Virus record (IMG/VR): IMGVR_UViG_3300027754_000091
Span: 1-62,795 of that record
Reading direction: 5' to 3' (one strand)
From: a virus
Lineage: Duplodnaviria; Caudoviricetes
Length of the DNA stretch: 62,795 bases
Part shown: in pieces, positions 39,951 to 62,105 of the stretch
How the letters are laid out: each line of letters begins with the position of its first letter
Numbering within the stretch: the first letter of the stretch is position 1
Translations under genes and position numbers: made by a program
The notes under the pieces: generated by a model
Databases searched by the model: none
Told to the model about the DNA's origin: nothing
What the model saw: the letters and a program-made list of their open reading frames with translations, nothing else

Positions 39951-39953
39951 TTA

Positions 39954-41240: not shown

Positions 41241-41241
41241 T

Positions 41242-43222: not shown

Positions 43223-46200
43223 TTATGCCCTCATTTGATCGTTATTGTTGCCCCTAATGGCTGAATCAATCATTCCTGCAACATTAGTTGTTATACCAGA
43301 TAGCGATTGCTGTATTGCTGTCAATACACTTGGAGTATTAAAATTTACATTTAATGATAATGGTGCAATAGCCAAAGTTATTGTTTTTGGTATAAGGCTT
43401 AGTGCAGATGTTAGATTGTTGACTGCTCTTTCAAAAGCAAGACTGCTAGAGTACATGCTTGCTGATGAGCTATTCATCATTGCTGCAACCTTATCAATTA
43501 GCGATATTGATGATGTTATTGTACCAGCAGTTTGTGCAAGATTTGATCCTAATAATGATGCACCAGAAGCCACAGAAGCTGCTACATCTTGTATACTTGC
43601 GAATCCAGCTTTAAGCGTTGTAAGATCAAGGTTAGCACTAGAACTGCCACCGCCACTACCTCCAGTACCATCTTGATAATAGCCAACTTTTCCACCCTTG
43701 GCATAATTATTAACCTTATCTAAAAATGCAGTTCCAACTCTATCTACTGCTGGCTTACTTACAACAAACTCACCCGGTGTTAACATAGCTGGTTGAGTGT
43801 CAGTGCTTGAACCACCGTTGGCAAAACCTCTAAAATAACTAGGCCCAGAACCAAAGACTGAATTTCCTTGTACTCTATTTCTTTGCACATTTGCTAATTG
43901 ATAATAAGGGTTAGGGGTTGGTCGGGGTGGATTAATTTGTTGATACGGTTGATTGTTCTGCGACATTCTTGCATTTTTAATAGTGTCTAAAGCTTTAGTT
44001 GCTGCCACATCTGTATTATTTACTGATAAACTTCCTAGCCCATCTTTTTGCAACTTAGATATTGCCTGTTGAGCTATACTTACATTGCTTCCTGGGGCAT
44101 CTGCAAGGGTTCCAGAAGCTAATGCTTTGTTTGCACTAACGCCTTGGAATGATTGATTTCCAGCTTTGCTAAAGCCAAGCTCATTTATGTAGTCTTTAAG
44201 ACTAACCTTATCATAGTTTTGACCATTGTCGCCATGATTTGGTGGACCACCAATTAATCCAGATATATAACGACTTCCAACAGCCGATGTTCTATATCCA
44301 GTTATTGGTGCTCTAGAAATTTCTTTGTTGTTTAAGATGTCATTAAAAGCTGCATCTTCCTCTGCGAATTTTGCAGCACCAGCCATTTTTGCTGAACCAT
44401 ATGGCGAATCAGATAATGCATTTAATCCACCAACATAATCGGGGATTGGGCTTCTACTGCTAAAAGAAGTGTAACCAGATCCAGATCCACCAAATTCTTT
44501 CGAATGCTTTGGTCCATATTCAGTAGCGTAAGTGTAGCTTCTATATTTTTTATTTAAAAATCCTGATCGATCTGCCCTATAGTTAGCCAAATTACCAAGA
44601 GTGTTTGCATTGACTCTAGGGTTAAAGACTCTAGAAGCTAAATAACCCTCTGTTCCTATGTCAAAATCTGTCCTTTGTCTTTCATATCTGGTAGGTCTAT
44701 ATCGACCACCACTAGCAGGGTCATAATACCCAGTTCCTTGATCAGCCCTTTGATCCATTGGATTGTCATACATTGGTCCAGAGCTTATATATCCCCTGCC
44801 TGGAGATTGTCTAGAATATGCAGCATAAAATGGGTTTATAGCTGTAAGATTACCACCACGGTATAAGTACTTTACCGCCCCACCACTGTTAAGATTTTGC
44901 AAGAGAGGGAGATTAGCGGAAGTTGCCCTAGCATTAACTACATACTCACCAGGAGATAGTATTGCTGGTACAGTATCACTACCCTTTGCCTTAAAGAAGG
45001 ATGGGTCAGGGTTTGGAGCACTGCTTGGAACAATACCGCCAGAGGCGAGAGCAAGAGGTTGTTTTTGACCATTCCAAGAATAGCCTATGTCCTTATTTTT
45101 TGAAAAATATTCAAGTATGTCTTTAGATGAAAGCTCAGATAGTTTTGGTAAGTTTAATTCTTTCCTTATTTTATTGCCGTCAAAGTTATAAAAATCTGTT
45201 TCGTCTAAGACATCGCCTTCAAAGCCTTTATTTATATAGCTTAAAATGTCTTGATCTTTATTATCAAATAGTTTGTTTCCATAAAAAGCTTGAACAATTT
45301 CTTTATTTCTGCCAGAATTTGCTAAAGACTTATTTATGTTTTTAAAATCTATTCTGTTAGTATTTTTTATTCTTTGAGGAATTATACCTTCGTAATTAGA
45401 TATTGGTCTTCCTTCAGCATTTGAAAAACCACTGTTGCTATCTTGATAAAATAATTCCTTGTTTGCGACTATCATTAAATCAATATAAGACTTAAGATCT
45501 TCCACTGTTGTTCGTTCTTTATACACACCGCCAAATAAATCTGTTTCCATTTCTTCTTTTAATTTTTTTATGTATTCCTGATTTTCATTTTCATTTTTAT
45601 TTTTGTTAATATCTTGCGTTGTACTTGTATTACTAAGCTCTTTATACGATGGTGGTATTTCAAACTTTTTACCAATTAAATCATATTCATTTTTTAACTT
45701 TGAAACTTGATTGCTTTTAGTATTTATGTATTCTGGACTTCTATATTTTTGAACAAAACCATTTTCTACTTTAAGAGACTTAAGAATTTCTACAATTTTT
45801 TCTTGTTCTAACATTCCAAGTTTTTCATTTATGCGTGTTCTATTGTCGGCTTCATTTAAATTTATTTTTTCATTTTCTATTTCATATTGTTCTTTAAGAA
45901 TTCCAAAATCATATTCAGACAGTTCTTTTTCTGGAACTATGCCTAATCTTGATGCTATTTCAGCAATCCTGCTTTCATTCTTTCTGTCGTTTAAAATTTT
46001 ATCTTTCAAAGATGATACATTTGTATCTTTGTTAATAAATAATTTAGAAAACACATCTGCTTTATCAGAATCTAAAACGCTTTCGTTTTTTGTTTTGCCA
46101 TCAAGAAATGCTGTACTATAGTTAGCACTATATCTGTCTCTTACTGCTTGTAAAGACTTTTGATCTGCTGTGCCTTTTTGCAACTCAGATATTTCTGACA

Positions 46201-49200
46201 TAAAGGCTTCTATAGAACCTTTCTTATCTGATTCTAATTTTTCAGCCAAGACAGCATCTGGAACTGCTGAAAAAGGATATTGGTTTAAATACTTGTTGCT
46301 TTTTAAATTTTTAAAATCAGGATCAGAGTAAATTCCATAAGATTCAATTTCATCAGAAAAATTATTAAAATAAGTTTGTGGTTTATTTAAAGCAAAATTA
46401 ACATAATCTTTACTATCGTACTTGTCAAAAAAATCAGGGCTAAAGTTTCCTTGACCTCTTTTGTCATATCTTCCTTGTAGATTTTTTCTAAGATCTCTTA
46501 CTTTTTGCATTTCTGCTTTTTTGAAACTTGCAGCTTGTGCATTTTGATAAATTTTATAACTAGCAATTAACAAACCAGCAGTTGCTCCAATAGCTATACC
46601 CGGCAAACCAAATGCTGCACCAGCACCAGCACCAGCAGCAGTTGTTCCAACTACATTTGTAATATCTCCTGCTAATGTAGTGTCTGCCTTTCCATTAAGT
46701 CCATCTACTGCTTGTTTATCGAATAATTGTTGAACGCCAGGAAAAACGCCACCGTATTTTGCGATAACTTTTTCTTGTTTTCCAGCAGATGATTTATCAG
46801 AGCTAAAGGCATCTCCTAAATCTTGTAATGCGTTACTGGTATCTCCTAAAAATGTAATTCCAACACCAGCAGCAAGAAGTGGTGAAGCAGAACTAGCAGC
46901 CATAATTGCTGCCATCATAGGCAACGATTCGCCAATACCTGTTGCGGTTTCTCCAAGGCCACTTTTTATTTCTGCAATACTATAGTCATTCATATAGTTG
47001 CTTATTGGATCAACTAAAAACGGCAAACTCATTTCAGCAAGATTTGTAATACTTGCAAATTTATGAGCAGCACGACTTGGTTTTCCAGCAGAAACCTTTT
47101 TTATCTGAGATGCATTATTGAGCCATCTTTTTACTTGTTTAGCAACTTCTTCAACTTTGTCTAAATCTAAATAACCTCCCTCATCTTTAGCAAAAGCTTT
47201 AATTCTCTCGCTAAGAGTTGAACTTTCTTTAACTGTTTTTGTTCTAATAATAGATCTAATGTCATTAACACTTTTTAATTTACTAAGCTCTGGATTAATT
47301 TCTATGTATTTGTCAAAAGCGTTTAACGGATCACTAAATTTAGGATTTTCACCAATGGTTGAACCAATTATAGACTTTAATAATGGTGCATCCTTTTCAG
47401 CAGGTATTTTTGTAGGATTAATAGATCTTTTATACATATTTGCTATTTCATCATATATTGCATTATCAACTGTTTTATCGCCAGGTTTTTTTCCTTTAGA
47501 TAATTCTACAATATTGTCAAGCCTAGTTTTAAAATCAGCAAGTCCATCTTTTGTTGTACCTTGAGTTGATGCTGATACAGTTGGTACAACTTTTTGAGTA
47601 TTTAGTCTGTTTTTAATAAAATTATCTTGCTCCACTTTACTAAGATCGTCATATAATATTTGTTCGGATCTAGTAAGACTTGAAAGGATTTCCTTAATTT
47701 TTGCTGATGGATCAATAGTTTCTGGTGGTTTTTGCCTTATCCCTCTTTGAATTAAAAAATTGTTTCTTCCATCTGCATCCAAAGATGTATATTTTTCAAG
47801 CTGTTTTTTGTTTAGGGTCGCTGTTTCTATTTCTTCTGAAGGGGTAAGAGTGTTTTTTCCTTGAAGTGCCTCTTTCATTTCTCCTGGAATATTTGTTATA
47901 TCTATTCCTCCACCAATCATTTTATTAATTTTTTCAAAAAAACCAGCTTTCTTAGGGGCATCACCAACAATTTTTTTAGGGTCTTCAATAACACCAGTTT
48001 TCTTAGGATCTTCAACACCAACTTCGCCATCTTTCTTTTGCCCAAAAAGGCTATTATAACCCTTTTGAAGACCAATGGTTGTCAATCCACCCACTGTCGC
48101 TAGACCAAGACCAGCTAATACATATGTTAGAGTTTGTCCAGCATCCATATCCTTAGTGGGTTGTGGTGTATTTTTACCAATCGGTTTTTCTTCAGCGTTT
48201 ACATTTCCACCGAATAAAGATGATGCTATTCCCAATCCTATTCCTAAAGCACTAGCCTTTTTACCTCTAAGTTTTTGATAGGCAAGAGTACCAGCAACAC
48301 CAACACCAGCAGCAGCTAAAAGAGCAGTTCCTGTGTATGTTGTGGCTTGTCCAGCATCAATTTCCTTAGTGGGTTCTGGTGTACGACCAAGGTCTATATC
48401 TGCGTTTGCATTTCCAGCAGATAGTGATGCTGCAAGTCCTGCAAGTCCTCCAAGTCCTACCGTTTTTAAGAATGCTTTTCCAAGTCCTGGTTTTGACTTT
48501 GGTTTAGGTTCAAATTGGAATTTTTCTTGTGCAGTTCTAGCTATAGCTTCTTTAGTCCAAGGCTCATATAATTGAGAAATTTTTGCTTTTGGTTGTGGTC
48601 CAAACATATCTAATTCAGCAATTTTATTTTTTCCTATTTCTGGATCATTAGGATAAGTTCTCATTATAAATTCTTCAAGCAATGCTTGCTCGTAGCCCTT
48701 ATTGGCAAATTCTGGTTTACCAAAAATGCTATTTAATTCAATTGGTTTTTTACCACTAATAGCACTTGCAACATCTCGATGATATGAACTATTATAGGTT
48801 TCTGCCAAACCAAAATCTTTAGCATGATCAAGAACACTTAATGTTGAAGTTGATGGTGGTCTTTTTAAAGTATCTCCTGGTGATGGAGCTTTACCGTTAA
48901 TAAGCTTAGGATTTGCTGAGAAGCCTCTTTCTAAATCATTTGATTGCAGTTCAGCAAGCATGGTATCTACACCATAGCCTTGACCATACCTAGACATATC
49001 TATAGCACCAAAAAGTGAATTATGTATAGGAGATAATGGATTTTGAGCAGCAGATTGAACCCTATGACCAAATTCATGAAATCCTGTTTCAACTTCACCA
49101 GTTCTGCTATTTGATCTACGAGAATAAGTAGTTGCTAAATTTGGAAATTCATTAGCATCACCAAAAGTATTAATCTGTGTCTGTTGACTTATTACTTTAT

Positions 49201-52200
49201 CTTTAAATGCAGCAATAGCATTTGCTATTCTTTTATTGCTTGGTTGCTCAGACAATCTTTTTTCTAGTTTTATTATATCTTCACTATACTGATTGTTTTG
49301 AACCTCTTGATACCCAGTTTCAAAAGTAGTTAATATAGTTTCTTTTGGACCAGTGTCACCTTTAAGTGGTGGTCCTTGCATTGGCCCTCTTATTTTTCTA
49401 CGGTTTTGTACTTCCAACTCTTCTATGAGGTTGGCATCACCTAATCTATCTTGCAGATTAAGATATCTTTCAAATCGTTTTGCTTTTCTAGTTCCAAGGT
49501 ACTTTTCTGATTCTGCAAGGAAAAAATTTCTATTTTCATATGGATCATAGTTTTGTTTAGTTAAAAAAGCCTTTTGTGATACCATTGGATCAAAATCAAC
49601 ATTATTCTTATTATACTTATCCATAAAAGGGGTTGGATCTCCCGCTTTCAGAGTAGGTTCTTTAAACCTAAGAGTTCCAGTATTTTGCAATGCCTCTTTT
49701 AAAGCTGGATAACCCGGATTAAATGTATTATCTAAAAATTTCTGAATTTTTACTTGTTCTTGTTGAGCTTCGGAAAATCGATGAGTTGGTTTTTCATCCT
49801 TTTTAAGAGCACCCCAAAGATGATCTTCGTCACCATAAAGTGGCCTGTCTAATAAACTTGGCCTATCTTTCTGAATTATGCCTTTGTCAGTAGAAGTTTG
49901 TTGATTAGCAGAAAGCGATTTTTGTAATATGCTTGTTGTTTTAGGTTGATACTCAGATGCCCTTCTTTGAGCTTCATTAAGAAGATCCATTTCTCTTCCT
50001 TGACCAGCATATTCAAGAATACCAGAAACTGGAAGTGGTTTATCATCCTTAATTGCTAGAGCAATATTTCTATGAGCTTCACTTTGATAATTTTTTGCTT
50101 CTTTTGAAGAAGAAGAAAATTCAGTAAGCCTTTTTAATTTATCTGCTGGATCACTGCCCATCCCATAAACTGCTGATGCTTCATAACCAAAAGTTGTTTT
50201 ACCCTTATCTGTTAGATCAAGATATTTGTCTGTATTCAAAGATCCAAAAATTGAATTATTAAGAGGCGATTTTGATGATTGACTATTATTTGTTACTGCA
50301 TGAAAACGCTCATGTTTTGCAACGGCAATATTTTCTATTGGGTCTGGACCTGGGAAAGTTGCTGCCACATTATCTAATGGTGAATAACTACCACTGGCTC
50401 CTGTTCCTGTTTTATTTTCCTTAAAACCCCTATTGTACATTCTTGGGAATAATTCAATTTCACTTCCTAATCTAATGTTCTGTGGTTCATTTAAAAGATT
50501 TTTAATCTTTATTTTTTCTTCGTTGTTTGGAGATCCAACTATTTGTGAATCAGCAAGCCTAGATAATTCTTCAAGCCTTTTTTGATATTCAAGATATCTT
50601 TGAAATTGATTTGATTTTCTTTCCCCAAGATATTTTGCTGTCTTATCTTTAAAACTAAGTTCTGGTAAACTTGGATCTTCACGCTGAGGTTCAAGTAAGA
50701 ATTTAAGTTCTCCAGTATGCCTTAATGTTCTTTTTAATTTTTCAACACCAGGATTAAAACTGTTTCTAATAAAATCATCTGGTTCACCGCCCAAGTTCAA
50801 ATAACTAACCTTGCCCCCACTATTCATATAATCTAAAAGACCTTTATTCTTTTTGGCCTTGTCAGCACCAATAATAAATTCTCCAGACTGAACCATAGCT
50901 GGAGTTTTACGGTCAGCTTGACCCCCCTTAGAAAAACCCATCACTTTAATGTTTTTTACATCTTTTAAACCATAAACTCTTTCAAAATAACCCCCCCCAA
51001 TAGTAGTAATGTCTGGTGGACTTCCAGCCATTAACAAATCTTCAAAATATGGTTTTAAATTTGCTCTTCTTTCGTAATACGCTCTGCTGTTACCATCATT
51101 ATCAACAGGATCAATTGCTTGTGCTCCTTGCAACATTGCATTACGATTAGCCCTTAAATAATCTTCTGTAGCATCTAATATTTGTTGGTAAGGAACTTGC
51201 TTTATAGCTAATGGCATTGCATAAATTTGACCACCGATAGCCATTCTATTAATTTTATCTAGTTTTTGTGGATTAAGATTTTGTATATTTAAACCAGTAT
51301 CACTTATGTTTGTTATCATAGACCAAGGAGCAATGTTTTGTTTTGAAACCACTGCACTAATCGGCAAAGACCCATCACGATAAGGAATATTTGTAAGATT
51401 ATCATCGCCCTGCATTATTCTTAAAGAGTTGTTTAAAGCATTTCTTCTCCAAGAACCTCTAAGATTTCCAAACTTTGTTAACACTGCAATAGCAATATTT
51501 TGCTCCCTTTGCATTTTTGCAATTCTTTGTGCTTCTATCCGATTAACATTTAGTGGGGCAGCAAGAGCAGCAGCAGGATCAACAAAAGCACCGTCAGCTA
51601 AATATTTAACAGCACCGCCAGCATTCATTGCTTTTGTAGGCTTAACTGTTCCACCGCCATTTAAAGCTTGTAGCAAAGGAAGATTTTCAGATGTTGCTTT
51701 TGCGTTAACCACATATTCGCCATGATTTAACATGGTGGGTATTGTATCTGGACCTATTGGTTTGAATACAGTTGGATCTGCACCAACCATTGCAGAAGCA
51801 TGGGTTACCATACCGCCAGTGCTTTTCCCACCAGCCCTTGGAGCAAGTGGATTAACTGGAGCAACTAAGTTTCTTGGGGCATTTAAAAGATTTAACTGGA
51901 CATTTAAATTTTGTACAGTATCTGCTGCAATATTTGATTGTGCTTGAAGATCTCGAATTTGTTGAAGAAATGCACTTCCAATAAAACCGCCCAGTCTTTG
52001 TATATCATCTACAGCTTTTGAAAAAACTGATGAGGTAACATTTTGTTGAAGTAAATCTTTAACAAAACTTCCTAAGTTTATTTGATCTCCTTGAGCATTT
52101 GGATTGTTTTCAAAACTAAAACCATTTTTATCACTTCTTCTAATTAAACCTAATTTATCAGATAGTCCAACTTGAGTTTGAACTTCTTTAGATTGCATAG

Positions 52201-55200
52201 GGATAAATTGTTGTTCAACAGCATAATCTATGGCTTGTACAAGTCTTCCAGGCTTAAATTTACCACTTGCATCGCCATATGATTGAACTTTTGCAGCAAT
52301 AGCATTAATGTCTAAACCAGCAAGGTTTTTATTTTGAGCAAGTTGATTAAGTAAACGACCAACATTTAGAGAATCATCTTGATTTACAGAGTTAGCAGCA
52401 ATAACATTTGCTTGATAATTACCTTGTTCATCTTTAGTCTTTGCAAAATCTGTGGCTTTTGCTTCTAAGTTTTTTTGTTTTTCAACAGAGCTTAAAAATG
52501 TAGTAATATCTTTACTATTTGGTGCTACATATTTAGTATAACTTTCTTGTGTTACAAAATTAGCCATACCTTTAGCAGATGGGGCTATTGATTGTAAGTC
52601 TTTTATTTTTGCATCATTAGTTCTAATTGATTGTTCTTGTTGAGCTATTTGTGTTCTTGATAGCTCTGCGGATAACCTTGTAAAAAATTGTTCATTCTGC
52701 AATGTTAGTTGTGCAAAAAATTGGCCTTGTAAAGTTTGTTGATCTTGTATTATTAATAATTGTGCTTGTTCTCTTACTGCCATAACAGCAAAAAGTTGTG
52801 CGTTTAACTGAAGTAATTGTGGTCCATATTTATCTTGGGCTTTTGTTTCTGGTTTAGATACAAATCCACTTGCTTGTAAAAATTCAGATTTTAATTTTTT
52901 ACCTTCTTCTCCAGAAAAATCTAAGTATTCAAAAATTGCTTTTCTTTGCTCAACATTAAATCTTAAAAGATTTCCACCAAGTTCTTTAGCAATACTAGTC
53001 AATTGACTACCAGCTTGAAGTCTTTGCAATTGTTCTGGCGATGATGTTAAAAGTTTTTCACCCTTATTTTCTGTTTCAGATTGTTTTCTTGCATTATCCT
53101 GTTCTTCATTTGCTATTTCTTGTCTTATCTTTCCAACCCTTTGTTCAATTGCAGACACTTCTTCAGTTGAATCAGCAAGATTTCTCATTGCCTGATTAAG
53201 AAGTGAGGCTTCTACCTTCAATCTTCCTAACTCATTTGTCGCATCAGTATCTTGGCCCCTTCCATTGGCTCCCGCTGTAAATCTAGCATTTTTTCTTTTT
53301 GCTTCTGCTGCTTCTGTATTAATTCTATTCTGATTGATTCTATCTTGTATTTGTTGAGGATCTAATTGATTACCATTATTAAGACCAGTAAGCCTAGCCT
53401 GTTGTTCTGCAAATGCTTTTGTCTGATCAGATATGTTGGTCATATCAAGACCTATCTGACCTTCTTTTATTTCACCAAATCTTGCCCCTAATGGATTCGC
53501 CTTTTTTTGTTTATTTATTTCTTTTTCAATATCGATATTTTTTGAAAAAGTTCTTGTTTGTTGTTGAATTTTTGAAAGTTTATCAAATTCTTGTACAGTT
53601 TTTATTGTTTCTTGAGCCAGCTTGTTTATTCCAGCCACATATGTATCTGAGGCTTTTTCTAAATCCTCTGCAATTTTTTGATAAGCTTTTAAGAATGGTT
53701 CTGAAACACCAGACATTATTTTTTTTGCAAATTCACCGTAATCTCCACCAGACTCATTAAGCATTTTGTTGAAGTCTTCACCCATTTTTCCAACAATTGA
53801 ATTAACATATGCTATTGTTTGCGATGGGTCAAATCCTCTATTTTTTAATTCTTGTGTTAAAACACCCCTTAAAACAGTTTGTGGGTCTTTACCACCTTTA
53901 ATATCATTTGGGTTTATATTCGCAAGTATATCTGGAAGTAATGAAGATATATTTGCAACTATGTTTCCAGATTTTTGAAAATTAGCCCCACTTGAACCAA
54001 GCCCGCTTGAAACATCTTTTAAGTTTTCTGCAAATGCACTTGGGTTTAAAAACGATGATTGAACATCAGTAGATATTTTTCTCTTTTGACCTATAGAAAA
54101 ATTTGAAGATAATGCATCCGTTATTGTTTGAAATGCTGGACTTAAATTATTTAATGTTGAAGCAGCATTAGATGAAGCATTTGCCAAAAGTGAAAATGCT
54201 ATATTAAGTTGTTCTGTACTTTTAATTGCTAAAGTTTGATTTTTAATAGAAATTTGTTGTTTTTCAAAATCTTTTGCAAATGTTTCAAATTGTTTTTTTA
54301 ATTTTTCTATTGGTTGATCTAAACCAATTGACAATTTAGCAAGTTGTGATGAATTGGCCGAGTCTTCAAAAAATTTATTTAAATCAAATTTTTGATCATC
54401 TTGTGCTTTAAAAGTATTAGTTTTTACATCAAGTGTTATAGTTGGTTTTATTTCTTCTTCAATTTGCTTTGATAAAAGAGAATTTATTCCAGATGCTTGT
54501 CCTGCATATTGTGTTCTTCTTTCTGCTTTACCAAAAGTGGCTTGTTGTTCAGCCCTACTAGTAAATGAAAAAAATGAAGAACTTGATTTAACCTTTTCGT
54601 CTATTGAAGCATCAATTTTATCTTGTAAATCTGTAACTTCTTTTAAATTTGTAGCCGATATTTTATTGAATGATGTAGCTGCAACAGCAAAAGCATTCTT
54701 TAATTGAGTTCCAGCTTGTTCCAATTTTATATCTGCAATTTGTTTTGCAGCATCTCTAAGACCAGTTGAAAGACCAGTCAACCCGCCAATAACAAATCCA
54801 GCAGCTATTCCCAACGGACCTAAAAAGCTACCAACAGCAGCACCAGCAGCAGCACCAGTAAGAGCACCAGAAGTTGCAGCCCCTGCCTTATATGAACCTT
54901 CATTTTTATTAGCAACAGCCTCTTTTGCTTTAGCATCACTTAAATCAAATGAGCCTCCAATCATGCCAAGGCCAGTACTAGCAGCAAAAATATTGTTCTG
55001 TAAATTATCTCTGGAAAAAGTGTTTTTTAGAAAATCTGATCCTTTTCTAAATAATCCTTTTTTTCCTGTGTCTGAATAACCTTCTTTTTGTAATCTTTTA
55101 GCTAAAACTGGATCATAAAATTCGCCCTTGTCTGAAACTTCAAACTTCCTTCTTCCAGCAACAGTTTCTCTAGCCATTTGTTGAGCTTGCTTATTTGCAA

Positions 55201-58200
55201 ACTTTTCATCGAATTCTAAACCTTTTGCTTCAGAAAAAGATTTTATTTGATTAAAATAACCAGCCTTCAATCTTTGAGCAGTATTTTCTCTAATTTCTTT
55301 ACGAGTGCCCCCAGTTGCCTCTTCTCCATAAAGTGCTTTATAGTTAGCAAGTTCTTTTCTTATTTCTTTTTTATAACCATCACCATAAGTTGATGTTATT
55401 ACCTTTCCATCTTTTGTAATATTTCCATCTGGATTATCTTTGTATTTGTTCTTTAATGCATTAATTTCTGATCCTGTTTTTTCCAGATCTTTTTGTGCCT
55501 GATTAACGAATGCTTTATTTCTAGCAGCACTTTGATTTACTTGTTTTAAATTATCGACACTTTGACCAACATTTTTTTGTGCTTCTGCTGTTGTTGAAGC
55601 AGCAGCATCAATACTTGCTTGTTTATTGGCTGCTAAGTTTTCATAGTTTGTTTTAACTCTTGTTGCAGATTGTATTTTTTTATCAATTGCTTTTTCTTCT
55701 CTACTTCCAACAGCAACGCCTCTTTTTTGAGTTTCAAGACCTCTAATTTCTTGCTCTTTAGCTTTAGCGTTTGATATGTGTCTAGATTGAATATCTCTTT
55801 CTTCTTGTTCTTTTGCTTTAACATCTTTTAATATGCCCTTTCTTTCTTCCATTGTTTTTAAAATGTCTGCTCTTCTAGCATTTATGTTTTCCTCATTTTT
55901 TTGACCTTGAGCAACCTTATTTGCTTGCTGTTTATAAAGAGGTTCAAGTGCTTTTACTTGTTTGCTTGTATTAGTAATATCTTCCGCAACAGCTATTGCT
56001 TCTTGTCTATTCTGTCTTTTTTCTGCTTTATTTGTTGGTATTCTAAGTTGTCTTTCAACTTGTTTTGCATTTACTATTTCTTCTCTTGTTAAAGTTCCAT
56101 AACCACCACTAGCAAATTTCTTTCTACCAGTCGTATTCATATGGTCTAAATTAGAAACGCCAATCTGCTTTGTTTCATCTGGATTATAGATGTATTCACC
56201 TGGCATAACTAATGATGGAATAACCCCACCACTAGCTCTTCCAAGTCGAGATAAGTTTGAAGCACCTATGCTGTTAACTGAAGATTTTTTAATTACATAA
56301 GAACCAATCGGCAAGTCTAATGGAACACTGTCAGTGTTGCCAACGCCTGGAACTAAACCGCCAAGAGCTTTTGGTTTTCTTAAAGCATCATTAGCTTTTT
56401 TATTTAATTTTGATTCTTGATTTTCAAGATTAGCAAGTTTTGGATCGCCTTGTGCATAATTATTAGCTTTTACAATTTTTTCATATTCGCCTTCTTTAAA
56501 CTTTGCAGTATTGTAAACAACTCCAATATCGCCAAGATTTATAGTGTCGGACTCTATGGTATTTGAAAATGATTTTTTGTTTCCAATTCGCATTTTATAT
56601 CTGGCTAACTTGTCTACTAATTCAGCATCTGAAACTGCTTCTCCTACATTTTTTACTTCATATGGAAAATTGCCTTTTCCAATTAGATCAACAGGATAAC
56701 CAGGTTTTGTTCTTGGAGCACCCAATTGTTGGGCTGCAAATGATTCAAAAGAATTTCCTTGAGCAGCAATACCTTTTAAACTTGCCGATTTTTTGTCTTC
56801 TAATGGAAAACTAATTATGTTGTAATTAATTTTATCGGTTGGATTAATTAGATTACCAGACCTATAATCACTATCCTTGGGCGTTTTTGATGAATCAAAT
56901 AGTTTTAAAAGTAATTCTTTTGATATAAATTGTGTGGCTTCAATAGAACCACCACTACCAAAACGACTTCTTGGAATAACCAACTCACCAGGTTCTAACA
57001 ATGCAGGAACCTTATCGCCCCTACCAACTCCTGGTACAACTCCACCCTTCGCCATTTTAATTATCCCACCAGAAGCCCTTCTTGTTCCAGTTGGCAAAAA
57101 TGGAGAAAATGTACTTGGTTGATTTGCTGGTGCAGGAGCAAAAGCCGTACTACCAAACCCCTTTGCAAAACCAGTCAAGCTTTGAACCGTCTTTACTGCT
57201 GCAATTGCAGTTATAACTGGCAAAACTCCTTTTAAAGAATCGGCAAGTGCAATACCAGCAGAAGCAGCACCGAGAAGTAAATCTATTAGTGATTTAAAAG
57301 AAGATGTGTTAGTAAGATTTCTAATAAAGTCTGCAAATTCTTCTTTAACCTTTTGTATTTTTACGCCAAAAGCCTCTTGTGCTTGTGCAGCATTTAGAGC
57401 AAGAGAAGCACCACCTATTTGGGCGACACCTAAAGCTTTCTGTGCAACACCAAATTCTTGAATAAGTGGTATAACCTTGGAGATCTGCCTATATCCACCA
57501 AGTTCTTCGATAATGGCACTAAACCTTGGATCAGTAGATCTAAGCTCATTAAGAGCACCAGAAAGCCTTTTAACAGCCTCGTATGGCCCAACAAACTGGT
57601 TTGCAAGACCTAGATCACCAGCAGCTTTAGCTTCATCTGCTGTATACCTTAGTTGTACGCCAATATCCTTAAGTGCTTCAACAGTTTCATTACGCTGTAC
57701 CCTAGTAAATATAGTTCTAAGTCCAGTTCCAATACTTTCTGCACTTTCTCTAGTTGTTTGCCTAATCGATGTGAATAATGCTAAAAATTCATTTAAGTCA
57801 CCACCAGCAGCTTTAAAAGCACCACCAGCCTTACGAACACCTTCAATTAAGTCTTGAGCTTCAACAGCAAATTCAGCAGCAACAGCGTTAATTGAACCAA
57901 GGGCGTTACCCAAGTCTTTTGCACTTATGCCAAACTGATTCATAACCGCAATAGCACCTTCTGTGGTATCTTTGAGGTTATCAAAGCTTGGGGCTAATGC
58001 AGCTTGAGCCAATGCTTCAAGTGCAACCTTAGTGTCTGCTAAACTTAAGTTAGCTTGTTTTAATGTCACTGCCGTTGTAAGTAGGTCTTTGCTAGAAACA
58101 CCATAATTTTTTGATAGCCTAGTTACTTCATTACCAACAGCACCAACTTGTCCAACACTGTCTGTAGAAACCTGAGTTAATCTAATCATTTCACGATCAA

Positions 58201-58504
58201 AATCTACAGCAGCAGTTAATGCTTGCTTTAGAGAAGATGTAAAAGTGATGATAGCTCCAGCAGTAAGTGTAAAAGCGACAAATCTTTTAGCAGCTAAACC
58301 TGACTGTCTACCAAATTGTTCCATAGCAGTACTAGCTTCTGCTGCTTGCACTTTAATATATCTTAAATTATCTGCATCATTTTTTGGTATACCCAAAGAT
58401 ACTGCACCAACATCTTTCAATTGACTATTGATAGTGTTAGCAGCATTTTTTAAAGATGCCGTATTTAATGCTACACTCAACTGTGCCGTTAAATTAAAAG
58501 CCAT
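43223..58504 (-). CDS. Giant tape measure protein (5093 aa) with TP901-type core and embedded cargo domains
   Basis: N-terminal AVDFDREMIRL...YGVSSKDL...ESAESIGTGLRTIFTR core; long Ala/Gln/Lys helical tracts; glycine-zipper hydrophobic segments; position downstream of the tube and chaperone genes. Confidence 0.9.
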   Translation of the reverse strand: MAFNLTAQLSVALNTASLKNAANTINSQLKDVGAVSLGIPKNDADNLRYIKVQAAEASTAMEQFGRQSGLAAKRFVAFTLTAGAIITFTSSLKQALTAAVDFDREMIRLTQVSTDSVGQVGAVGNEVTRLSKNYGVSSKDLLTTAVTLKQANLSLADTKVALEALAQAALAPSFDNLKDTTEGAIAVMNQFGISAKDLGNALGSINAVAAEFAVEAQDLIEGVRKAGGAFKAAGGDLNEFLALFTSIRQTTRESAESIGTGLRTIFTRVQRNETVEALKDIGVQLRYTADEAKAAGDLGLANQFVGPYEAVKRLSGALNELRSTDPRFSAIIEELGGYRQISKVIPLIQEFGVAQKALGVAQIGGASLALNAAQAQEAFGVKIQKVKEEFADFIRNLTNTSSFKSLIDLLLGAASAGIALADSLKGVLPVITAIAAVKTVQSLTGFAKGFGSTAFAPAPANQPSTFSPFLPTGTRRASGGIIKMAKGGVVPGVGRGDKVPALLEPGELVIPRSRFGSGGSIEATQFISKELLLKLFDSSKTPKDSDYRSGNLINPTDKINYNIISFPLEDKKSASLKGIAAQGNSFESFAAQQLGAPRTKPGYPVDLIGKGNFPYEVKNVGEAVSDAELVDKLARYKMRIGNKKSFSNTIESDTINLGDIGVVYNTAKFKEGEYEKIVKANNYAQGDPKLANLENQESKLNKKANDALRKPKALGGLVPGVGNTDSVPLDLPIGSYVIKKSSVNSIGASNLSRLGRASGGVIPSLVMPGEYIYNPDETKQIGVSNLDHMNTTGRKKFASGGYGTLTREEIVNAKQVERQLRIPTNKAEKRQNRQEAIAVAEDITNTSKQVKALEPLYKQQANKVAQGQKNEENINARRADILKTMEERKGILKDVKAKEQEERDIQSRHISNAKAKEQEIRGLETQKRGVAVGSREEKAIDKKIQSATRVKTNYENLAANKQASIDAAASTTAEAQKNVGQSVDNLKQVNQSAARNKAFVNQAQKDLEKTGSEINALKNKYKDNPDGNITKDGKVITSTYGDGYKKEIRKELANYKALYGEEATGGTRKEIRENTAQRLKAGYFNQIKSFSEAKGLEFDEKFANKQAQQMARETVAGRRKFEVSDKGEFYDPVLAKRLQKEGYSDTGKKGLFRKGSDFLKNTFSRDNLQNNIFAASTGLGMIGGSFDLSDAKAKEAVANKNEGSYKAGAATSGALTGAAAGAAVGSFLGPLGIAAGFVIGGLTGLSTGLRDAAKQIADIKLEQAGTQLKNAFAVAATSFNKISATNLKEVTDLQDKIDASIDEKVKSSSSFFSFTSRAEQQATFGKAERRTQYAGQASGINSLLSKQIEEEIKPTITLDVKTNTFKAQDDQKFDLNKFFEDSANSSQLAKLSIGLDQPIEKLKKQFETFAKDFEKQQISIKNQTLAIKSTEQLNIAFSLLANASSNAASTLNNLSPAFQTITDALSSNFSIGQKRKISTDVQSSFLNPSAFAENLKDVSSGLGSSGANFQKSGNIVANISSLLPDILANINPNDIKGGKDPQTVLRGVLTQELKNRGFDPSQTIAYVNSIVGKMGEDFNKMLNESGGDYGEFAKKIMSGVSEPFLKAYQKIAEDLEKASDTYVAGINKLAQETIKTVQEFDKLSKIQQQTRTFSKNIDIEKEINKQKKANPLGARFGEIKEGQIGLDMTNISDQTKAFAEQQARLTGLNNGNQLDPQQIQDRINQNRINTEAAEAKRKNARFTAGANGRGQDTDATNELGRLKVEASLLNQAMRNLADSTEEVSAIEQRVGKIRQEIANEEQDNARKQSETENKGEKLLTSSPEQLQRLQAGSQLTSIAKELGGNLLRFNVEQRKAIFEYLDFSGEEGKKLKSEFLQASGFVSKPETKAQDKYGPQLLQLNAQLFAVMAVREQAQLLIIQDQQTLQGQFFAQLTLQNEQFFTRLSAELSRTQIAQQEQSIRTNDAKIKDLQSIAPSAKGMANFVTQESYTKYVAPNSKDITTFLSSVEKQKNLEAKATDFAKTKDEQGNYQANVIAANSVNQDDSLNVGRLLNQLAQNKNLAGLDINAIAAKVQSYGDASGKFKPGRLVQAIDYAVEQQFIPMQSKEVQTQVGLSDKLGLIRRSDKNGFSFENNPNAQGDQINLGSFVKDLLQQNVTSSVFSKAVDDIQRLGGFIGSAFLQQIRDLQAQSNIAADTVQNLNVQLNLLNAPRNLVAPVNPLAPRAGGKSTGGMVTHASAMVGADPTVFKPIGPDTIPTMLNHGEYVVNAKATSENLPLLQALNGGGTVKPTKAMNAGGAVKYLADGAFVDPAAALAAPLNVNRIEAQRIAKMQREQNIAIAVLTKFGNLRGSWRRNALNNSLRIMQGDDNLTNIPYRDGSLPISAVVSKQNIAPWSMITNISDTGLNIQNLNPQKLDKINRMAIGGQIYAMPLAIKQVPYQQILDATEDYLRANRNAMLQGAQAIDPVDNDGNSRAYYERRANLKPYFEDLLMAGSPPDITTIGGGYFERVYGLKDVKNIKVMGFSKGGQADRKTPAMVQSGEFIIGADKAKKNKGLLDYMNSGGKVSYLNLGGEPDDFIRNSFNPGVEKLKRTLRHTGELKFLLEPQREDPSLPELSFKDKTAKYLGERKSNQFQRYLEYQKRLEELSRLADSQIVGSPNNEEKIKIKNLLNEPQNIRLGSEIELFPRMYNRGFKENKTGTGASGSYSPLDNVAATFPGPDPIENIAVAKHERFHAVTNNSQSSKSPLNNSIFGSLNTDKYLDLTDKGKTTFGYEASAVYGMGSDPADKLKRLTEFSSSSKEAKNYQSEAHRNIALAIKDDKPLPVSGILEYAGQGREMDLLNEAQRRASEYQPKTTSILQKSLSANQQTSTDKGIIQKDRPSLLDRPLYGDEDHLWGALKKDEKPTHRFSEAQQEQVKIQKFLDNTFNPGYPALKEALQNTGTLRFKEPTLKAGDPTPFMDKYNKNNVDFDPMVSQKAFLTKQNYDPYENRNFFLAESEKYLGTRKAKRFERYLNLQDRLGDANLIEELEVQNRRKIRGPMQGPPLKGDTGPKETILTTFETGYQEVQNNQYSEDIIKLEKRLSEQPSNKRIANAIAAFKDKVISQQTQINTFGDANEFPNLATTYSRRSNSRTGEVETGFHEFGHRVQSAAQNPLSPIHNSLFGAIDMSRYGQGYGVDTMLAELQSNDLERGFSANPKLINGKAPSPGDTLKRPPSTSTLSVLDHAKDFGLAETYNSSYHRDVASAISGKKPIELNSIFGKPEFANKGYEQALLEEFIMRTYPNDPEIGKNKIAELDMFGPQPKAKISQLYEPWTKEAIARTAQEKFQFEPKPKSKPGLGKAFLKTVGLGGLAGLAASLSAGNANADIDLGRTPEPTKEIDAGQATTYTGTALLAAAGVGVAGTLAYQKLRGKKASALGIGLGIASSLFGGNVNAEEKPIGKNTPQPTKDMDAGQTLTYVLAGLGLATVGGLTTIGLQKGYNSLFGQKKDGEVGVEDPKKTGVIEDPKKIVGDAPKKAGFFEKINKMIGGGIDITNIPGEMKEALQGKNTLTPSEEIETATLNKKQLEKYTSLDADGRNNFLIQRGIRQKPPETIDPSAKIKEILSSLTRSEQILYDDLSKVEQDNFIKNRLNTQKVVPTVSASTQGTTKDGLADFKTRLDNIVELSKGKKPGDKTVDNAIYDEIANMYKRSINPTKIPAEKDAPLLKSIIGSTIGENPKFSDPLNAFDKYIEINPELSKLKSVNDIRSIIRTKTVKESSTLSERIKAFAKDEGGYLDLDKVEEVAKQVKRWLNNASQIKKVSAGKPSRAAHKFASITNLAEMSLPFLVDPISNYMNDYSIAEIKSGLGETATGIGESLPMMAAIMAASSASPLLAAGVGITFLGDTSNALQDLGDAFSSDKSSAGKQEKVIAKYGGVFPGVQQLFDKQAVDGLNGKADTTLAGDITNVVGTTAAGAGAGAAFGLPGIAIGATAGLLIASYKIYQNAQAASFKKAEMQKVRDLRKNLQGRYDKRGQGNFSPDFFDKYDSKDYVNFALNKPQTYFNNFSDEIESYGIYSDPDFKNLKSNKYLNQYPFSAVPDAVLAEKLESDKKGSIEAFMSEISELQKGTADQKSLQAVRDRYSANYSTAFLDGKTKNESVLDSDKADVFSKLFINKDTNVSSLKDKILNDRKNESRIAEIASRLGIVPEKELSEYDFGILKEQYEIENEKINLNEADNRTRINEKLGMLEQEKIVEILKSLKVENGFVQKYRSPEYINTKSNQVSKLKNEYDLIGKKFEIPPSYKELSNTSTTQDINKNKNENENQEYIKKLKEEMETDLFGGVYKERTTVEDLKSYIDLMIVANKELFYQDSNSGFSNAEGRPISNYEGIIPQRIKNTNRIDFKNINKSLANSGRNKEIVQAFYGNKLFDNKDQDILSYINKGFEGDVLDETDFYNFDGNKIRKELNLPKLSELSSKDILEYFSKNKDIGYSWNGQKQPLALASGGIVPSSAPNPDPSFFKAKGSDTVPAILSPGEYVVNARATSANLPLLQNLNSGGAVKYLYRGGNLTAINPFYAAYSRQSPGRGYISSGPMYDNPMDQRADQGTGYYDPASGGRYRPTRYERQRTDFDIGTEGYLASRVFNPRVNANTLGNLANYRADRSGFLNKKYRSYTYATEYGPKHSKEFGGSGSGYTSFSSRSPIPDYVGGLNALSDSPYGSAKMAGAAKFAEEDAAFNDILNNKEISRAPITGYRTSAVGSRYISGLIGGPPNHGDNGQNYDKVSLKDYINELGFSKAGNQSFQGVSANKALASGTLADAPGSNVSIAQQAISKLQKDGLGSLSVNNTDVAATKALDTIKNARMSQNNQPYQQINPPRPTPNPYYQLANVQRNRVQGNSVFGSGPSYFRGFANGGSSTDTQPAMLTPGEFVVSKPAVDRVGTAFLDKVNNYAKGGKVGYYQDGTGGSGGGSSSANLDLTTLKAGFASIQDVAASVASGASLLGSNLAQTAGTITSSISLIDKVAAMMNSSSASMYSSSLAFERAVNNLTSALSLIPKTITLAIAPLSLNVNFNTPSVLTAIQQSLSGITTNVAGMIDSAIRGNNNDQMRA

Positions 58505-59463: not shown

Positions 59464-59830
59464 CTTTGTCCTCCTTTGTTTTTAGAAAAGTCTGGTGTCT
59501 ATTCCAAGAAATCAAATACTGGCCCATCTCATTTTCTACTGCTCTTATTTGATGATTGCCGTTATTGAGTACTGCCGTTCTACATTCTTCCCATAATTGC
59601 TTCCATTCTAACTGTTCATCTGTCAGTTCACTTTCTGACAAACGATGCCCCCAAAGCTCTCCAAAATTTTGCTCAAAAGAAGATAACGCACCAATAAAGG
59701 CAGTCCTAACTTTTGTGCTAGTGATTTTGAAAAGTCTAGCCCTTGAATCTGATTGATATTTTTTTTTGCCCTTTTCATTTTCCTCCTGACTTAATCTTAA
59801 CGCATCCTGCATTTGCTTTTCAAGATCCAT
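59447..59830 (-). CDS. Hypothetical protein in tail module
   Basis: 127-aa helical coupled ORF. Confidence 0.55.
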   Translation of the reverse strand: MDLEKQMQDALRLSQEENEKGKKKYQSDSRARLFKITSTKVRTAFIGALSSFEQNFGELWGHRLSESELTDEQLEWKQLWEECRTAVLNNGNHQIRAVENEMGQYLISWNRHQTFLKTKEDKDECQR

Positions 59831-59832
59831 TT

Positions 59833-60879: not shown

Positions 60880-60900
60880 CCAATGTTCCTAAATTTAAAG

Positions 60901-60925
60901 GAGTCGCAAGGGTTAGTTGCGACTC
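60901..60925 (-). terminator. Hairpin after the tail tube gene
   Basis: Perfect 9-bp inverted repeat GAGTCGCAA-N7-TTGCGACTC, followed on the minus strand by CTTTAAATTT. Confidence 0.65.
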
Positions 60926-60950
60926 GTTTATTAAAATCAAAAAACCATTT

Positions 60951-62039: not shown

Positions 62040-62094
62040 TTCTTTTCTCCTAAGTATATTGTCTATCCAAACAAGACTGCCCCTCACCTAAGAA

Positions 62095-62101: not shown

Positions 62102-62105
62102 AAAA

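Follow-up and report, generated by a model that had tools for sequence, protein, structure and literature searches.

Does a tape measure protein of 5,093 amino acids act as a ruler for the phage tail along its entire chain, or may it also carry extra enzymes into the host? The question is raised by P0001, an open reading frame on the minus strand of the 62,795 nt window (the whole stretch of DNA analyzed, from IMG/VR record IMGVR_UViG_3300027754_000091). The frame is open for 5,093 codons, i.e. 15,279 bases without a stop codon. The initial annotation had described an open reading frame of this size with seven copies of a repeated module, and these are present at the positions it gave, to within a few bases. 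The parts of P0001 are as follows, in order from the N-terminal end.

43223..58504, minus strand: whole open reading frame, tape measure protein P0001, 5,093 aa (open frame and 110 homologues of the full-length class)
57083..58504, minus strand: N-terminal tape-measure domain, aa 1–474, segment family F0 (Pfam, PHROG; F0 is present in 111 of 111 homologues)
56960..57082, minus strand: module 1, aa 475–515, N-terminal half of the module only (profile; similarity to P0002 stops just past its core)
56372..56959, minus strand: slot 1 cassette, aa 516–711, PD-(D/E)xK nuclease-like (AlphaFold2, VIA-align, alignment A2)
56225..56371, minus strand: module 2, aa 712–760, degenerate core (profile)
56102..56242, minus strand: module 3, aa 755–801, in tandem with module 2 (profile)
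51827..56101, minus strand: long conserved segment, aa 802–2226, family F2 (family census, composition)
51587..51826, minus strand: module 4, aa 2227–2306 (profile)
50942..51586, minus strand: segment D, aa 2307–2521, family F7, without a recognized domain (Pfam, segment families)
50786..50941, minus strand: module 5, aa 2522–2573 (profile)
49925..50719, minus strand: HExxH-type copy 1, aa 2596–2860, HERFH at aa 2731 (motif, duplication)
48635..49576, minus strand: HExxH-type copy 2, aa 2977–3290, HEFGH at aa 3143 (tandem duplicate of copy 1)
45047..48634, minus strand: rest of the large variable segment, aa 3291–4486, without a recognized domain (Pfam, PHROG)
44852..45046, minus strand: module 6, aa 4487–4551, the best-scoring copy (profile)
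43847..44851, minus strand: Gly/Ser/Asn/Tyr/Pro-rich block, aa 4552–4886, family F6 (G+P+N+S+Y 44%)
43664..43846, minus strand: module 7, aa 4887–4947 (profile; covered by phrog_13338 and phrog_35029)
43226..43663, minus strand: C-terminal Ser/Ala/Leu-rich tail, aa 4948–5093, family F4 (segment families, composition)

Family matches show P0001 to be a tape measure protein of the PF10145 (PhageMin_Tail/TP901) type. In a Pfam search of the protein, PF10145 matches aa positions 126–337 (nt 57494–58129) with 85.9 bits, where the cut-off is 33.2, and a six-frame search gives 93 bits. Nine PHROG tape-measure families also match, with E-values of 4e-26 to 3e-7. The N-terminal domain contains a hydrophobic stretch at aa positions 403–437, and its closest match in an isolated phage is the YomI region of SPbeta (28% identity). 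For the C-terminal 2,493 aa no match was found by tblastn in 50,697 phage records, and the two halves of P0001 gave 0 hits at E <= 1 against PDB sequences. The gene lies in a block of large open reading frames that are all in the same orientation. Its 9–10 neighbor genes show no PHROG match and only sub-threshold Pfam hits, and a sheath or tail-tube gene was not identified among them. The phage is uncultured and its genome is about 145–150 kb.

A frame of this size could be the product of a chimeric contig or of genes fused by sequencing errors, as P0001 is from a single metagenomic contig with neighbors that have no family match. However 110 homologues of the full-length class (2,857–7,872 aa) are found on independent contigs from several sources and have the architecture in common; three of them are collinear with P0001 over the full length at 77–84% identity. 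There are also 23 related loci in IMG/VR, and no stops occur in the open frame. The probability of an artifact is practically negligible.

The module is about 60 aa in length and was defined with a profile built on the seven P0001 copies and then iterated on homologues. Its consensus is A-x-G-G-h-V...G-x-x-D-T-V-P-A-M-L-x-P-G-E-F-V-V...L...N-x-G-G, in which A-x-G-G, D-x-V-P and P-G-E are nearly invariant. Module 2 reads IGSYVI in its core where the others have PGE[YF]V; the envelopes of modules 2 and 3 overlap, and most homologues have the tandem pair at this location. The motifs FASGG, MNAGG, YAKGG and LNLGG, which had been listed as extra xxGG motifs, do occur, yet they are the C-terminal Gly-Gly of the module itself (profile positions 49–50 and 57–58) and are not additional. 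The AlphaFold2 pLDDT of the modules is below 50 and thus gives no structural clue to their role. A trimer prediction with three module copies scored 0.03, where the mark is 0.42, and counts neither way. At the DNA level the module cores are only 65–74% identical over 34 nt, and recombination between the modules of a single gene was discarded on these grounds.

The module profile finds 594 copies in all 111 giant homologues, 2–10 in each (median 6); after residue shuffling of these 111 proteins it finds 0. From 1.84 billion sequence representatives the profile retrieves 15,790 proteins at E <= 0.001, and 710 of them pass E <= 1e-30; the top 150 are all 2,122–7,872 aa in length and display 4–11 copies each. 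One module used as a tblastn query is matched by 756 isolated-phage records at E <= 1. The module is not confined to giant proteins, which agrees with the earlier statement that ordinary tape measures carry it: it is found in lambda gpH (positions 734–783 of 853), in the Cheetobro tape measure (874–924 of 1,390), twice in Douge gp16 (E = 8.6e-9, at 966 and 1413 of 1,699 aa) and in mycobacteriophage tape measures. Lambda gpH (8iyk_H) was detected with the seven-copy profile among 177,635 PDB sequences at E = 0.007, and with the iterated profile it scores 21 bits. These matches show the module to be homologous to the gpH element 734–783. No lysin domain was found beside the module of the Cheetobro tape measure, and no module copy was found in P23-45 gp96, the one giant tape measure with proven cargo.

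Comparison of close relatives shows that sequence exchanges start and stop exactly at modules. Between P0001 and P0002, identity is 99% from the N-terminus up to module 1, 19% in slot 1 (~200 aa) and 81–94% in later segments; it ends past the module 1 core and resumes at module 2. The pair P0014 and P0016 behaves likewise. Similarity of P0001 to P0005, P0007, P0011, P0013, P0014 and P0015 stops at aa positions 2568–2584 (module 5), and similarity to P0010, P0011 and P0012 resumes at aa positions 4481–4483 (module 6). In BLAST matches at least 200 aa long, 11,986 of 33,588 internal ends fall within a module +/-15 aa, where 3,325 are expected from the share of length; this count is subject to the non-independence of the pairs and to the tendency of alignments to end in conserved modules. 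In addition, the HExxH-type cassette is located after module 5 in 10 proteins and after module 1 in 10 others. The proposal that the module is a recombination unit for cargo cassettes therefore stands in part, i.e. exchange ends at modules and the same cassette is found in different slots.

No relation is seen between the individual inter-module segments, which differ in this from repeated ruler units. A total of 620 such segments were sorted into 153 families, 33 of them in slot 1 alone. Conserved modules flank variable inserts across the 111 homologous tape measures, the kind of pattern that the profile check proposed in the initial annotation was meant to reveal. However 101 of the 153 families are singletons and precomputed Pfam domains beyond PF10145 are present in few of the 111 proteins, so many of the “cassettes” could be fast-evolving ruler sequence. 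Where domains are recognized, some are enzyme-like: slot 1 of P0041 has an ART-PolyVal domain (PF18760, aa positions 529–724, 65 bits), which is also precomputed in the shorter relatives P0247–P0249, and an ADPrib_exo_Tox domain is found in P0081, P0045 and P0076. PF28597 is precomputed for 10 relatives, P0002 among them. Protein length rises with module number, by about 545 aa per module (Spearman 0.74, n = 204). These comparisons support the module as a family-wide joint that has conserved scaffold on one side and variable inserts on the other, and the family, judged from its sequences, would be one of polyvalent, module-jointed tape measures.

The slot 1 insert of P0001 is predicted to fold like a PD-(D/E)xK nuclease and has the catalytic signature intact. 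The confident part of the AlphaFold2 model, aa ~555–709, is a compact alpha/beta fold, with a block pLDDT of 74–91 in the core. The leading VIA-align matches are the FAN1 VRR-NUC domain, Hjc, NucC and restriction enzymes (Z 5.5–4), all with Z values below the tool's trust mark of 8. FAN1 has Z 5.5 (rmsd 4.3, 84 aligned residues) and Hjc (1gef_A) has Z 5.4 (rmsd 3.5, 89 of 120 residues), with further Hjc matches at 5.3 and 5.1. Of the 50 matches listed by VIA-align, at least 40 are PD-(D/E)xK-type nucleases by their titles. Foldseek found nothing at E <= 0.001 for this model against the PDB. Residues E587, D606, E616 and K618, i.e. E, D and ExK, do not vary among the 10 sequences of alignment A2, and these sites are located on a helix at model residues 115–130 and on or beside a strand at 150–154. 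The fold matches and the invariant residues bear out the nuclease-like block that had been noted from the sequence; together with the ADP-ribosyltransferase-type domains of relatives, they also agree with the view that some inserts are enzyme-like cargo. An ESM Atlas search with this domain gave ~170 aa viral clusters (0.93–0.95) and weak leads to Eco47II (0.85) and SmaI (0.84). A word-based search for free-standing homologues (94–301 aa) found none. P0002 and P0016 have unrelated cassettes in place of this domain.

The two HExxH-type copies have 27% identity to each other (E = 3e-15). The residues H, E and H are shared by all 12 aligned sequences, as are a downstream E, Y and H, and the motif spacing among relatives is HExxH in some and HExxxH in others. 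The model of the domain has a mean pLDDT of 58, and what VIA-align matches in it (Z <= 6.9) is no more than a generic helical hairpin at model residues 25–108. No Pfam peptidase family matches P0001 at E <= 0.1, a scan of IMG/VR with the domain found no relative, and an hhalign comparison of the HExxH alignment with P23-45 gp96 gave a probability of 0.05%. The two metallopeptidase-like domains suggested earlier are present as a tandem duplicate with invariant H, E and H residues, and a zincin fold is a putative reading of them. The domains are best termed putative hydrolases, with the motifs being what the metallopeptidase reading rests on.

The long segment at aa positions 802–2226 has a composition like that of the N-terminal domain and displays a Gly-zipper hydrophobic stretch at positions 1220–1249. 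F2 or F1 is found in 94 of 111 homologues; the F2 length has a CV of 0.11 and identity across the family is 23–26%. The sequence at aa positions 3291–4486 is diverged or missing in close relatives. It has hydrophobic stretches at positions 3459–3479, 3861–3885 and 3961–3983, and its locus has a 64 nt internal repeat (nt 48107–48170 and 48320–48383). Six hydrophobic stretches are counted, and these, with the 44% G+P+N+S+Y content of aa positions 4552–4886, confirm the membrane segments and the low-complexity block that had been placed between modules. The C-terminal tail (aa 4948–5093) would dock in the tail tip, by analogy with the resolved C-termini of lambda gpH (818–849) and Douge gp16 (1658–1699).

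The explanation we lean towards, which we regard as somewhat probable, is that P0001 is a polyvalent tape measure, i.e. a conserved scaffold with module joints and exchangeable delivered cassettes. The scaffold would consist of the N-terminal PF10145 domain, the ~1,400 aa segment with its glycine-zipper membrane stretch and the short C-terminal tail, and it would act as template for the tail tube, dock in the tip, be ejected first and aid in channel formation. The modules would interrupt this scaffold as fixed joints. The slots would hold the PD-(D/E)xK nuclease-like domain, the two putative HExxH hydrolase copies, the membrane segments and the low-complexity block in P0001, and ADP-ribosyltransferases and many cassettes without known identity in relatives. 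As the whole protein would be in the tail lumen, the contents of the slots would enter the host before the DNA. We infer from the analogous cases of T5 pb2C and P23-45 gp96 that the cassettes are delivered as active enzymes.

The length of a tape measure sets the length of the tail, at about 0.15 nm per residue. It is conceivable, although rather unlikely, that all 5,093 residues of P0001 are extended and length-setting, with a tail of ~750 nm and modules that are structural punctuation. Removal of a 114 aa hydrolase motif from the TM4 tape measure shortens the tail from 200 to 180 nm (PMC1796659), and in the accounts of TM4 and P23-45 embedded domains or giant tape measures go with proportionally long tails. 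Most P0001 segments are without a recognizable domain, and the three unrelated slot 1 cassettes of the closest subfamily are nearly equal in length (196–204 aa), as expected if total length is selected. However relatives with 45–70% identical N-terminal domains span about 1,600 to 7,872 aa on contigs of ~140–190 kb, which as rulers would give five-fold differences in tail length within one lineage. The variable remainder has a length CV of 0.45 versus 0.20 for the scaffold; relatives hold ART domains in the same slot; and the nuclease-like and HExxH-type cassettes retain invariant catalytic-type residues that a pure spacer would lose. The ruler and the polyvalent tape measure overlap, because cargo can also count as length, and a tail of ~750 nm, as in P23-45, is compatible with cargo delivery.

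The modules might instead bind the tail chaperone, the tube wall or the hub, or oligomerize, with the giant proteins being tape-measure units joined end to end. The exchange boundaries at modules would then be a by-product of modules being the only conserved DNA. The lambda module is in the C-terminal part of gpH that touches the tail-tip region, C-terminal parts of tape measures are trimeric at the hub, and minimal members of the family consist of N-terminal domain, module, slot, module, long segment, module and C-terminus, all of which would fit such docking. Units joined end to end are however difficult to reconcile with inter-module segments that are mutually unrelated, and the Cheetobro module (466 aa from the C-terminus) and both Douge copies are far from the hub-bound tip; moreover, modules are not resolved in any of the solved structures. 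We consider this docking role to be very unlikely.

A further point is whether P0001 is cut at its modules. In lambda, gpH is reported to be cut after tail assembly within a Gly-rich region (PMC12617516), and the gpH module is directly downstream of this cleavage zone. The published masses of ~78 and ~14 kDa compare with calculated values of 77.7 and 14.6 kDa if gpH is cut near residue 710, some 24 residues N-terminal to the module, and of 79.8 and 12.5 kDa for a cut at 733/734; the cut near 710 fits slightly better. In T5, pb2 is described as cut after R1127 during tail morphogenesis, which separates a C-terminal muralytic motif; the pb2C fragment stays in the tail and is let go at infection (PMC10038345). 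The T5 cut directly precedes a module-like sequence, R|AEGGMM (AEGGMMYPGV...GE...), with a profile match that is not significant (-1.9 bits). On the strength of the module location in lambda gpH, cleavage of P0001 at its modules is possible but doubtful; the lack of a module in P23-45 gp96 speaks against it. Still less likely is an extended form of this idea, in which the module would be a portable processing signal that lambda gpH also has and that T5 pb2 has as a degenerate copy. Each module would be cut after closure of the tube, by itself or by a tail-tip protease, and the 560-kDa polyprotein would become a train of seven or eight proteins in the lumen, fired in fixed order ahead of the DNA and re-equipped by cassette swaps. 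The members of such a train would be a nuclease, hydrolases, membrane pieces and channel formers.

Several known systems share properties with P0001. Lambda gpH, as far as its published description goes, has one copy of the module after the cleaved Gly-rich region, hydrophobic segments and a C-terminal tip that docks in the tail tip; unlike P0001 it is 853 aa in length with a single module and no enzymatic insert, and module and cleavage are linked in it by position only. T5 pb2 is by its published description a cleaved tape measure with cargo, and its post-cut sequence resembles the start of the module; however it has one cut, one cargo and an N-terminal domain of another family. The gp96 protein of P23-45 and P74-26 is a tape measure of 5,002 aa to which a virion RNA polymerase is fused; this enzyme works within the host, and metallopeptidase and membrane domains have been noted in gp96 (PMC10770324). 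Its size is comparable to that of P0001 and it has enzyme cargo, but it is without the module, its cargo is N-terminal and no cassette system is described for it. Motifs of cell-wall hydrolases embedded in the tape measures of TM4 (gp17), SPbeta (YomI) and TP901-1 are reported to aid infection (PMC1796659). These are one or two wall-directed motifs, unlike P0001, and have neither its variety of intracellular-type enzymes nor multiple slots bounded by modules.

The polyvalent proteins (Iyer et al. 2017) are described as giant virion-delivered chains of unrelated enzymes, with peptidase domains proposed to separate them. The ART-PolyVal domain, which was defined there, is the one in slot 1 of P0041. 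According to that description these proteins are head- or DNA-associated, and the word “tape” is absent from the main text, whereas the carrier in P0001 is a tape measure with repeated modules as joints. None of the signature Pfam domains of polyvalent proteins (ART-PolyVal, the family metallopeptidase) is found in P0001 at E <= 0.1. The Sle1-type effectors of actinobacterial contractile injection systems are presented as a modular platform derived from a tape measure, with interchangeable domains and a tail-like tube (PMC13277306). Unlike P0001 they belong to bacterial injection systems and not to a phage, and in the account given it is the C-terminal domain that is swapped.

Tape measures with one embedded enzyme were known before, and in 2024 an RNA polymerase was shown to be fused to a giant one. 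P0001 points to a larger class, of at least 710 sequence clusters that match the module profile at E <= 1e-30, where the tape measure would serve as a framework in which standard joints separate exchangeable inserts. Among the inserts are some that resemble enzyme types of phage-host conflict, i.e. nuclease and ADP-ribosyltransferase. The location of the module beside the lambda gpH cleavage zone bears on a forty-year-old point, namely where and how gpH is cut. If the inserts do arrive active, these proteins would be a large and so far unexplored source of phage effectors that act early in infection, and the module profile would be a simple means to find and delimit such effectors in metagenomes.

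Pfam analysis of P0001, the giant tape measure protein of the window, gives PF10145 (PhageMin_Tail) as the sole match, at aa positions 126–337 (85.9 bits, cut-off 33.2). Nine PHROG tape-measure families cover aa positions ~8–480, and phrog_28 reaches position 976. Searched against 50,697 records of isolated phages, the first 3,000 aa match nothing but the tape-measure region of SPbeta YomI type, with ~28% identity to positions 179–393, and the last 2,493 aa of P0001 have no match. The features of the locus discussed here are as follows.

Features of P0001 and its gene (aa, position on the protein)
43223..58504, minus strand: giant tape-measure open reading frame, open over 5,093 codons
aa 475–515, minus strand: module 1, profile match
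aa 712–760, minus strand: module 2, profile match
aa 755–801, minus strand: module 3, profile match
aa 2227–2306, minus strand: module 4, profile match
aa 2522–2573, minus strand: module 5, profile match
aa 4487–4551, minus strand: module 6, profile match
aa 4887–4947, minus strand: module 7, profile match
aa 2596–2860 and 2977–3290, minus strand: HExxH-type domain as a tandem duplicate (27% identity, E 3e-15)
aa 521 and 709: similarity to homologue P0016 ends and resumes
aa 2568–2584: similarity to P0005, P0007, P0011, P0013, P0014 and P0015 ends, at the end of module 5
aa 4481–4483: similarity to P0010, P0011 and P0012 resumes, at the start of module 6

The initial annotation had placed seven copies of a repeated module in this protein; all seven are found, at coordinates that it gave correctly to a few bases. 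A profile made from the window copies and then iterated on homologues detects 594 modules in 111 of 111 giant proteins, with 2–10 to a protein (median 6); after residue shuffling these 111 sequences give no match. Across these 594 copies the N-terminal part of the consensus reads A-x-G(98%)-G(99%)-h-V ... G(81)-x-x-D(84)-T-V-P(92)-A(83)-M-L(88)-x-P(70)-G(98)-E(86)-F-V(83)-V, and the C-terminal part is L(94) ... N(58)-x-G(73)-G(78)-x-V-x-Y-L-x-G-G(100). The xxGG motifs previously listed as extra are real, but they are the two C-terminal Gly-Gly positions of the module itself. A direct repeat of 64 nt (48107–48170 and 48320–48383, 78% identical, 213 nt apart) also lies within the open reading frame; it doubles a short unit that has a hydrophobic stretch and reads TP.PTK..DAGQ, then a Gly/Ala/Leu-rich segment.

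When P0001 is compared with its relatives, similarity is interrupted time and again at the edges of modules. The N-terminal domains of P0001 and P0002 are 99% identical and their later segments 81–94%, whereas slot 1, the stretch after module 1, is unrelated (19%). The alignment shows identity through the module-1 core (...EPGELVIPRSRF), then noise for ~200 aa, and identity is picked up again at GG[LI]VPGVGNTDSVPLDL of module 2. P0014 and P0016 display the same stop at module 1 and restart at module 2. In an all-against-all Blast search of the 111 proteins, 11,986 of the 33,588 internal ends of matches of at least 200 aa (35.7%) fall inside a module ±15 aa, where the length share gives an expectation of 3,325 (9.9%), the pairs being non-independent. 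The HExxH-type cassette is located behind module 5 in 10 proteins and behind module 1 in 10 others, the outcome that the initial annotation had named as support for variable cargo between conserved modules. Within the window gene the DNA identity of module cores is only 65–74% over 34 nt, so that the exchange takes place between genomes and not inside one gene.

A word-indexed search confined to proteins of 2,801–8,913 aa gives 110 homologues of P0001, with chain lengths of 2,857–7,872 aa that reflect the lengths searched and not the true range of the family. Three are collinear with P0001 at 77–84% identity; in most, similarity is limited to the first ~500 aa. Cutting the 111 proteins at modules yields 620 segments of at least 60 aa, which form 153 similarity families, 101 of them singletons. 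All 111 proteins have the N-terminal domain, and 94 of the 111 have a long segment of family F1 or F2 behind a tandem module pair, F2 having a median of 1,454 aa (CV 0.11). Slot 1 holds 33 different segment families of 153–2,593 aa. The scaffold, i.e. N-terminus plus long segment, has a median length of 1,923 aa (CV 0.20), and the remainder spans 636 to 6,116 aa (CV 0.45). A search with the N-terminal domain for shorter relatives yields 1,705 at E ≤ 0.001, of which many are incomplete. The 93 among them with at least 1,500 aa have 0–5 modules, mostly 2–3, in the order N-terminus, module, slot of ~250–350 aa, module, long segment, module, C-terminus. Protein length increases with module number (Spearman 0.74, ~545 aa per module), a descriptive relation as the 204 proteins are related.

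The slot-1 insert of P0001 is, with moderate confidence, a predicted PD-(D/E)xK nuclease domain. The region at aa positions 516–711 was modelled from A2, a 10-sequence alignment; the core at ~555–709 has block pLDDT values of 74–91, and flanking modules 1–3 are below 50. Foldseek gives no match at E ≤ 0.001. In the exhaustive VIA-align search the best-ranked match is the nuclease domain of FAN1 (Z 5.5); archaeal Hjc resolvases come next (Z 5.4, 5.3, 5.1), ahead of NucC, SgrAI, CdiA-CT nuclease toxins and numerous restriction enzymes, every Z value being below the trust mark of 8. At least 40 of the 50 matches listed are nucleases of this fold class, judged by their titles. All 10 A2 sequences share E587, D606, E616 and K618, residues that lie on the expected helix and strands of the model. 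These matches and residues are in line with the nuclease-like block that had been noted from the sequence.

The two metallopeptidase-like domains of the initial annotation are present as two copies with invariant H, E and H, but the model (mean pLDDT 58) is poor and matches only helical hairpins. All 12 aligned sequences keep the H, E and H together with an E, a Y and an H further downstream; the spacing varies, HExxH in some and HExxxH in others. It is these motifs that point to a putative hydrolase. Among the relatives, ART-PolyVal is found in slot 1 of P0041 (aa 529–724, 65 bits, between modules at 460–502 and 981–1018) and ADPrib_exo_Tox in P0081 (aa 1538–1653). Precomputed Pfam lists give ADPrib_exo_Tox in P0045 and P0076, SNase in P0066, EF-hands in three proteins and PF28597 in ten; this last label is on three of the four proteins carrying the F20 cassette. 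The majority of cassettes have no domain assignment.

The module is also found outside the giant proteins. The seven-copy profile matches 15,790 of 1.84 billion representative proteins at E ≤ 0.001 (3,734 at E ≤ 1e-10, 710 at E ≤ 1e-30), and the best 150 of the 15,790 are each 2,122–7,872 aa with 4–11 copies. Among PDB sequences it matches the mycobacteriophage Douge tape measure twice (966–1011 and 1413–1459 of 1,699, E 8.6e-9), lambda gpH (E 0.007) and, weakly, a third tape measure, 8vjh_Q (E 0.58). With one module as tblastn query, 756 records of isolated phages match at E ≤ 1, and Mycobacterium and Gordonia phages make up most of them. Among the 40 matches listed, the feature is a tape measure in 34, a "minor tail protein" in one and an "endolysin" in five, which are RefSeq copies of the same tape-measure genes. 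The Cheetobro tape measure has one module (874–924 of 1,390, 34 bits); the profile finds none in P23-45 gp96.

Lambda gpH is described as cut after tail assembly in a Gly-rich stretch close to its C-terminal end, giving gpH* (~78 kDa) and gpHC (~14 kDa), which is kept at the tip; residues ~690–817 are not seen in the structure (PMC12617516). The module at 734–783 (21 bits with the iterated profile) directly follows the Gly-rich stretch 697–722 and is the conserved element of this unseen region. A cut at 710 would give computed masses of 77.7/14.6 kDa and one at 733/734 would give 79.8/12.5 kDa, so that the published masses fit a site ~24 residues upstream of the module slightly better, within gel error. 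T5 pb2 is reported to be cut after R1127, between a hydrophobic stretch and a muralytic motif, with pb2C remaining in the tail (PMC10038345). At the cut the sequence reads R|AEGGMMYPGV...GE..., with the module start aligned by the profile to 1127–1137 at a non-significant score of −1.9 bits. In 380 distinct module contexts the residue preceding A-x-G-G is F in 30%, K in 23%, L in 12% and R in 11%, K and R amounting to 34% against a background of 12.9%. The lambda, T5 and K/R-context observations are hints of module processing, not evidence of cleavage.

At 62,795 bases, the linear IMG/VR virus record that makes up the window has an estimated completeness of 42%. L017 and L027 hold the two ends of a relative's tape-measure gene and are on one 145,196-bp IMG/VR contig; the gene extends past this contig at either end, which points to a genome of ~145 kb assembled as a circle, and this size agrees with the completeness estimate. 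The plus strand at 1–32 kb carries a replication module with ribonucleotide reductase, helicase, primase, exonuclease and a split DNA polymerase. The polymerase open reading frames are 15595–17508 (+; phrog_405 positions 41–616) and 18412–20034 (+; positions 632–1073), and the 212-aa frame between them at 17771–18409 (+) is possibly an intron or homing-endonuclease insertion. Three frames that match the phage glycosyltransferase family phrog_2170 (20416–21915, 21912–23045 and 23745–24725, all +) are in the same block, a 248-aa frame separating the second from the third.

The frames flanking the giant gene match no PHROG family and all their Pfam matches are sub-threshold; further upstream, in a 95%-identical relative, there is likewise no annotated PHROG match and only sub-threshold Pfam. 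None of the structural-side frames at 33895–43221 and 58588–62795 (−) matches an annotated PHROG family; one is of 1,612 aa and another of 659 aa has a sub-threshold Laminin_G_3. Positions 1–10000 of the related locus L008 show just two weak matches, both to PHROG families without known function. The virion module of this lineage essentially lacks annotation. P0240 (615 aa, partial), 68% identical to P0001 aa 1–450, is labelled in one source [quoted passage not shown]; the label and the window G+C of about 29–39% jointly give a weak hint of the host group. Source labels of other relatives are Gemmataceae and Thermoleophilia.

The whole protein may measure tail length, as three observations suggest, and at 0.15 nm per residue 5,093 aa would give a tail of ~760 nm. 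P23-45 gp96 (5,002 aa) is said to define an extraordinarily long tail, and its N-terminal part is a virion RNA polymerase acting in the host (PMC10770324). When the TM4 tape measure lost a hydrolase motif of 114 aa, the tail is reported to have shortened from 200 to 180 nm (PMC1796659); embedded domains can therefore count as ruler. Three unrelated slot-1 cassettes in the closest subfamily (P0002 aa ~532–735, and families F20 and F52 in relatives) are of near-equal length, 196–204 aa, which looks like a length constraint. However, relatives with similar N-terminal domains on similar-sized contigs have tape measures of about 1,600 to 7,872 aa. Cargo delivery and ruler function are compatible in one protein.

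Tape measures with single embedded wall hydrolases were known before, as were cleavage of the lambda and T5 tape measures and a single case of a giant tape measure to which a polymerase is fused. Delivery by polyvalent proteins is a known strategy, in an account whose main text does not contain the word "tape" (PMC5512222), and bacterial injection systems are described as having tape-measure-derived modular effectors (PMC13277306). No description of tape measures with multiple modules and cassettes was found within a limited literature search, outside most subscription journals.
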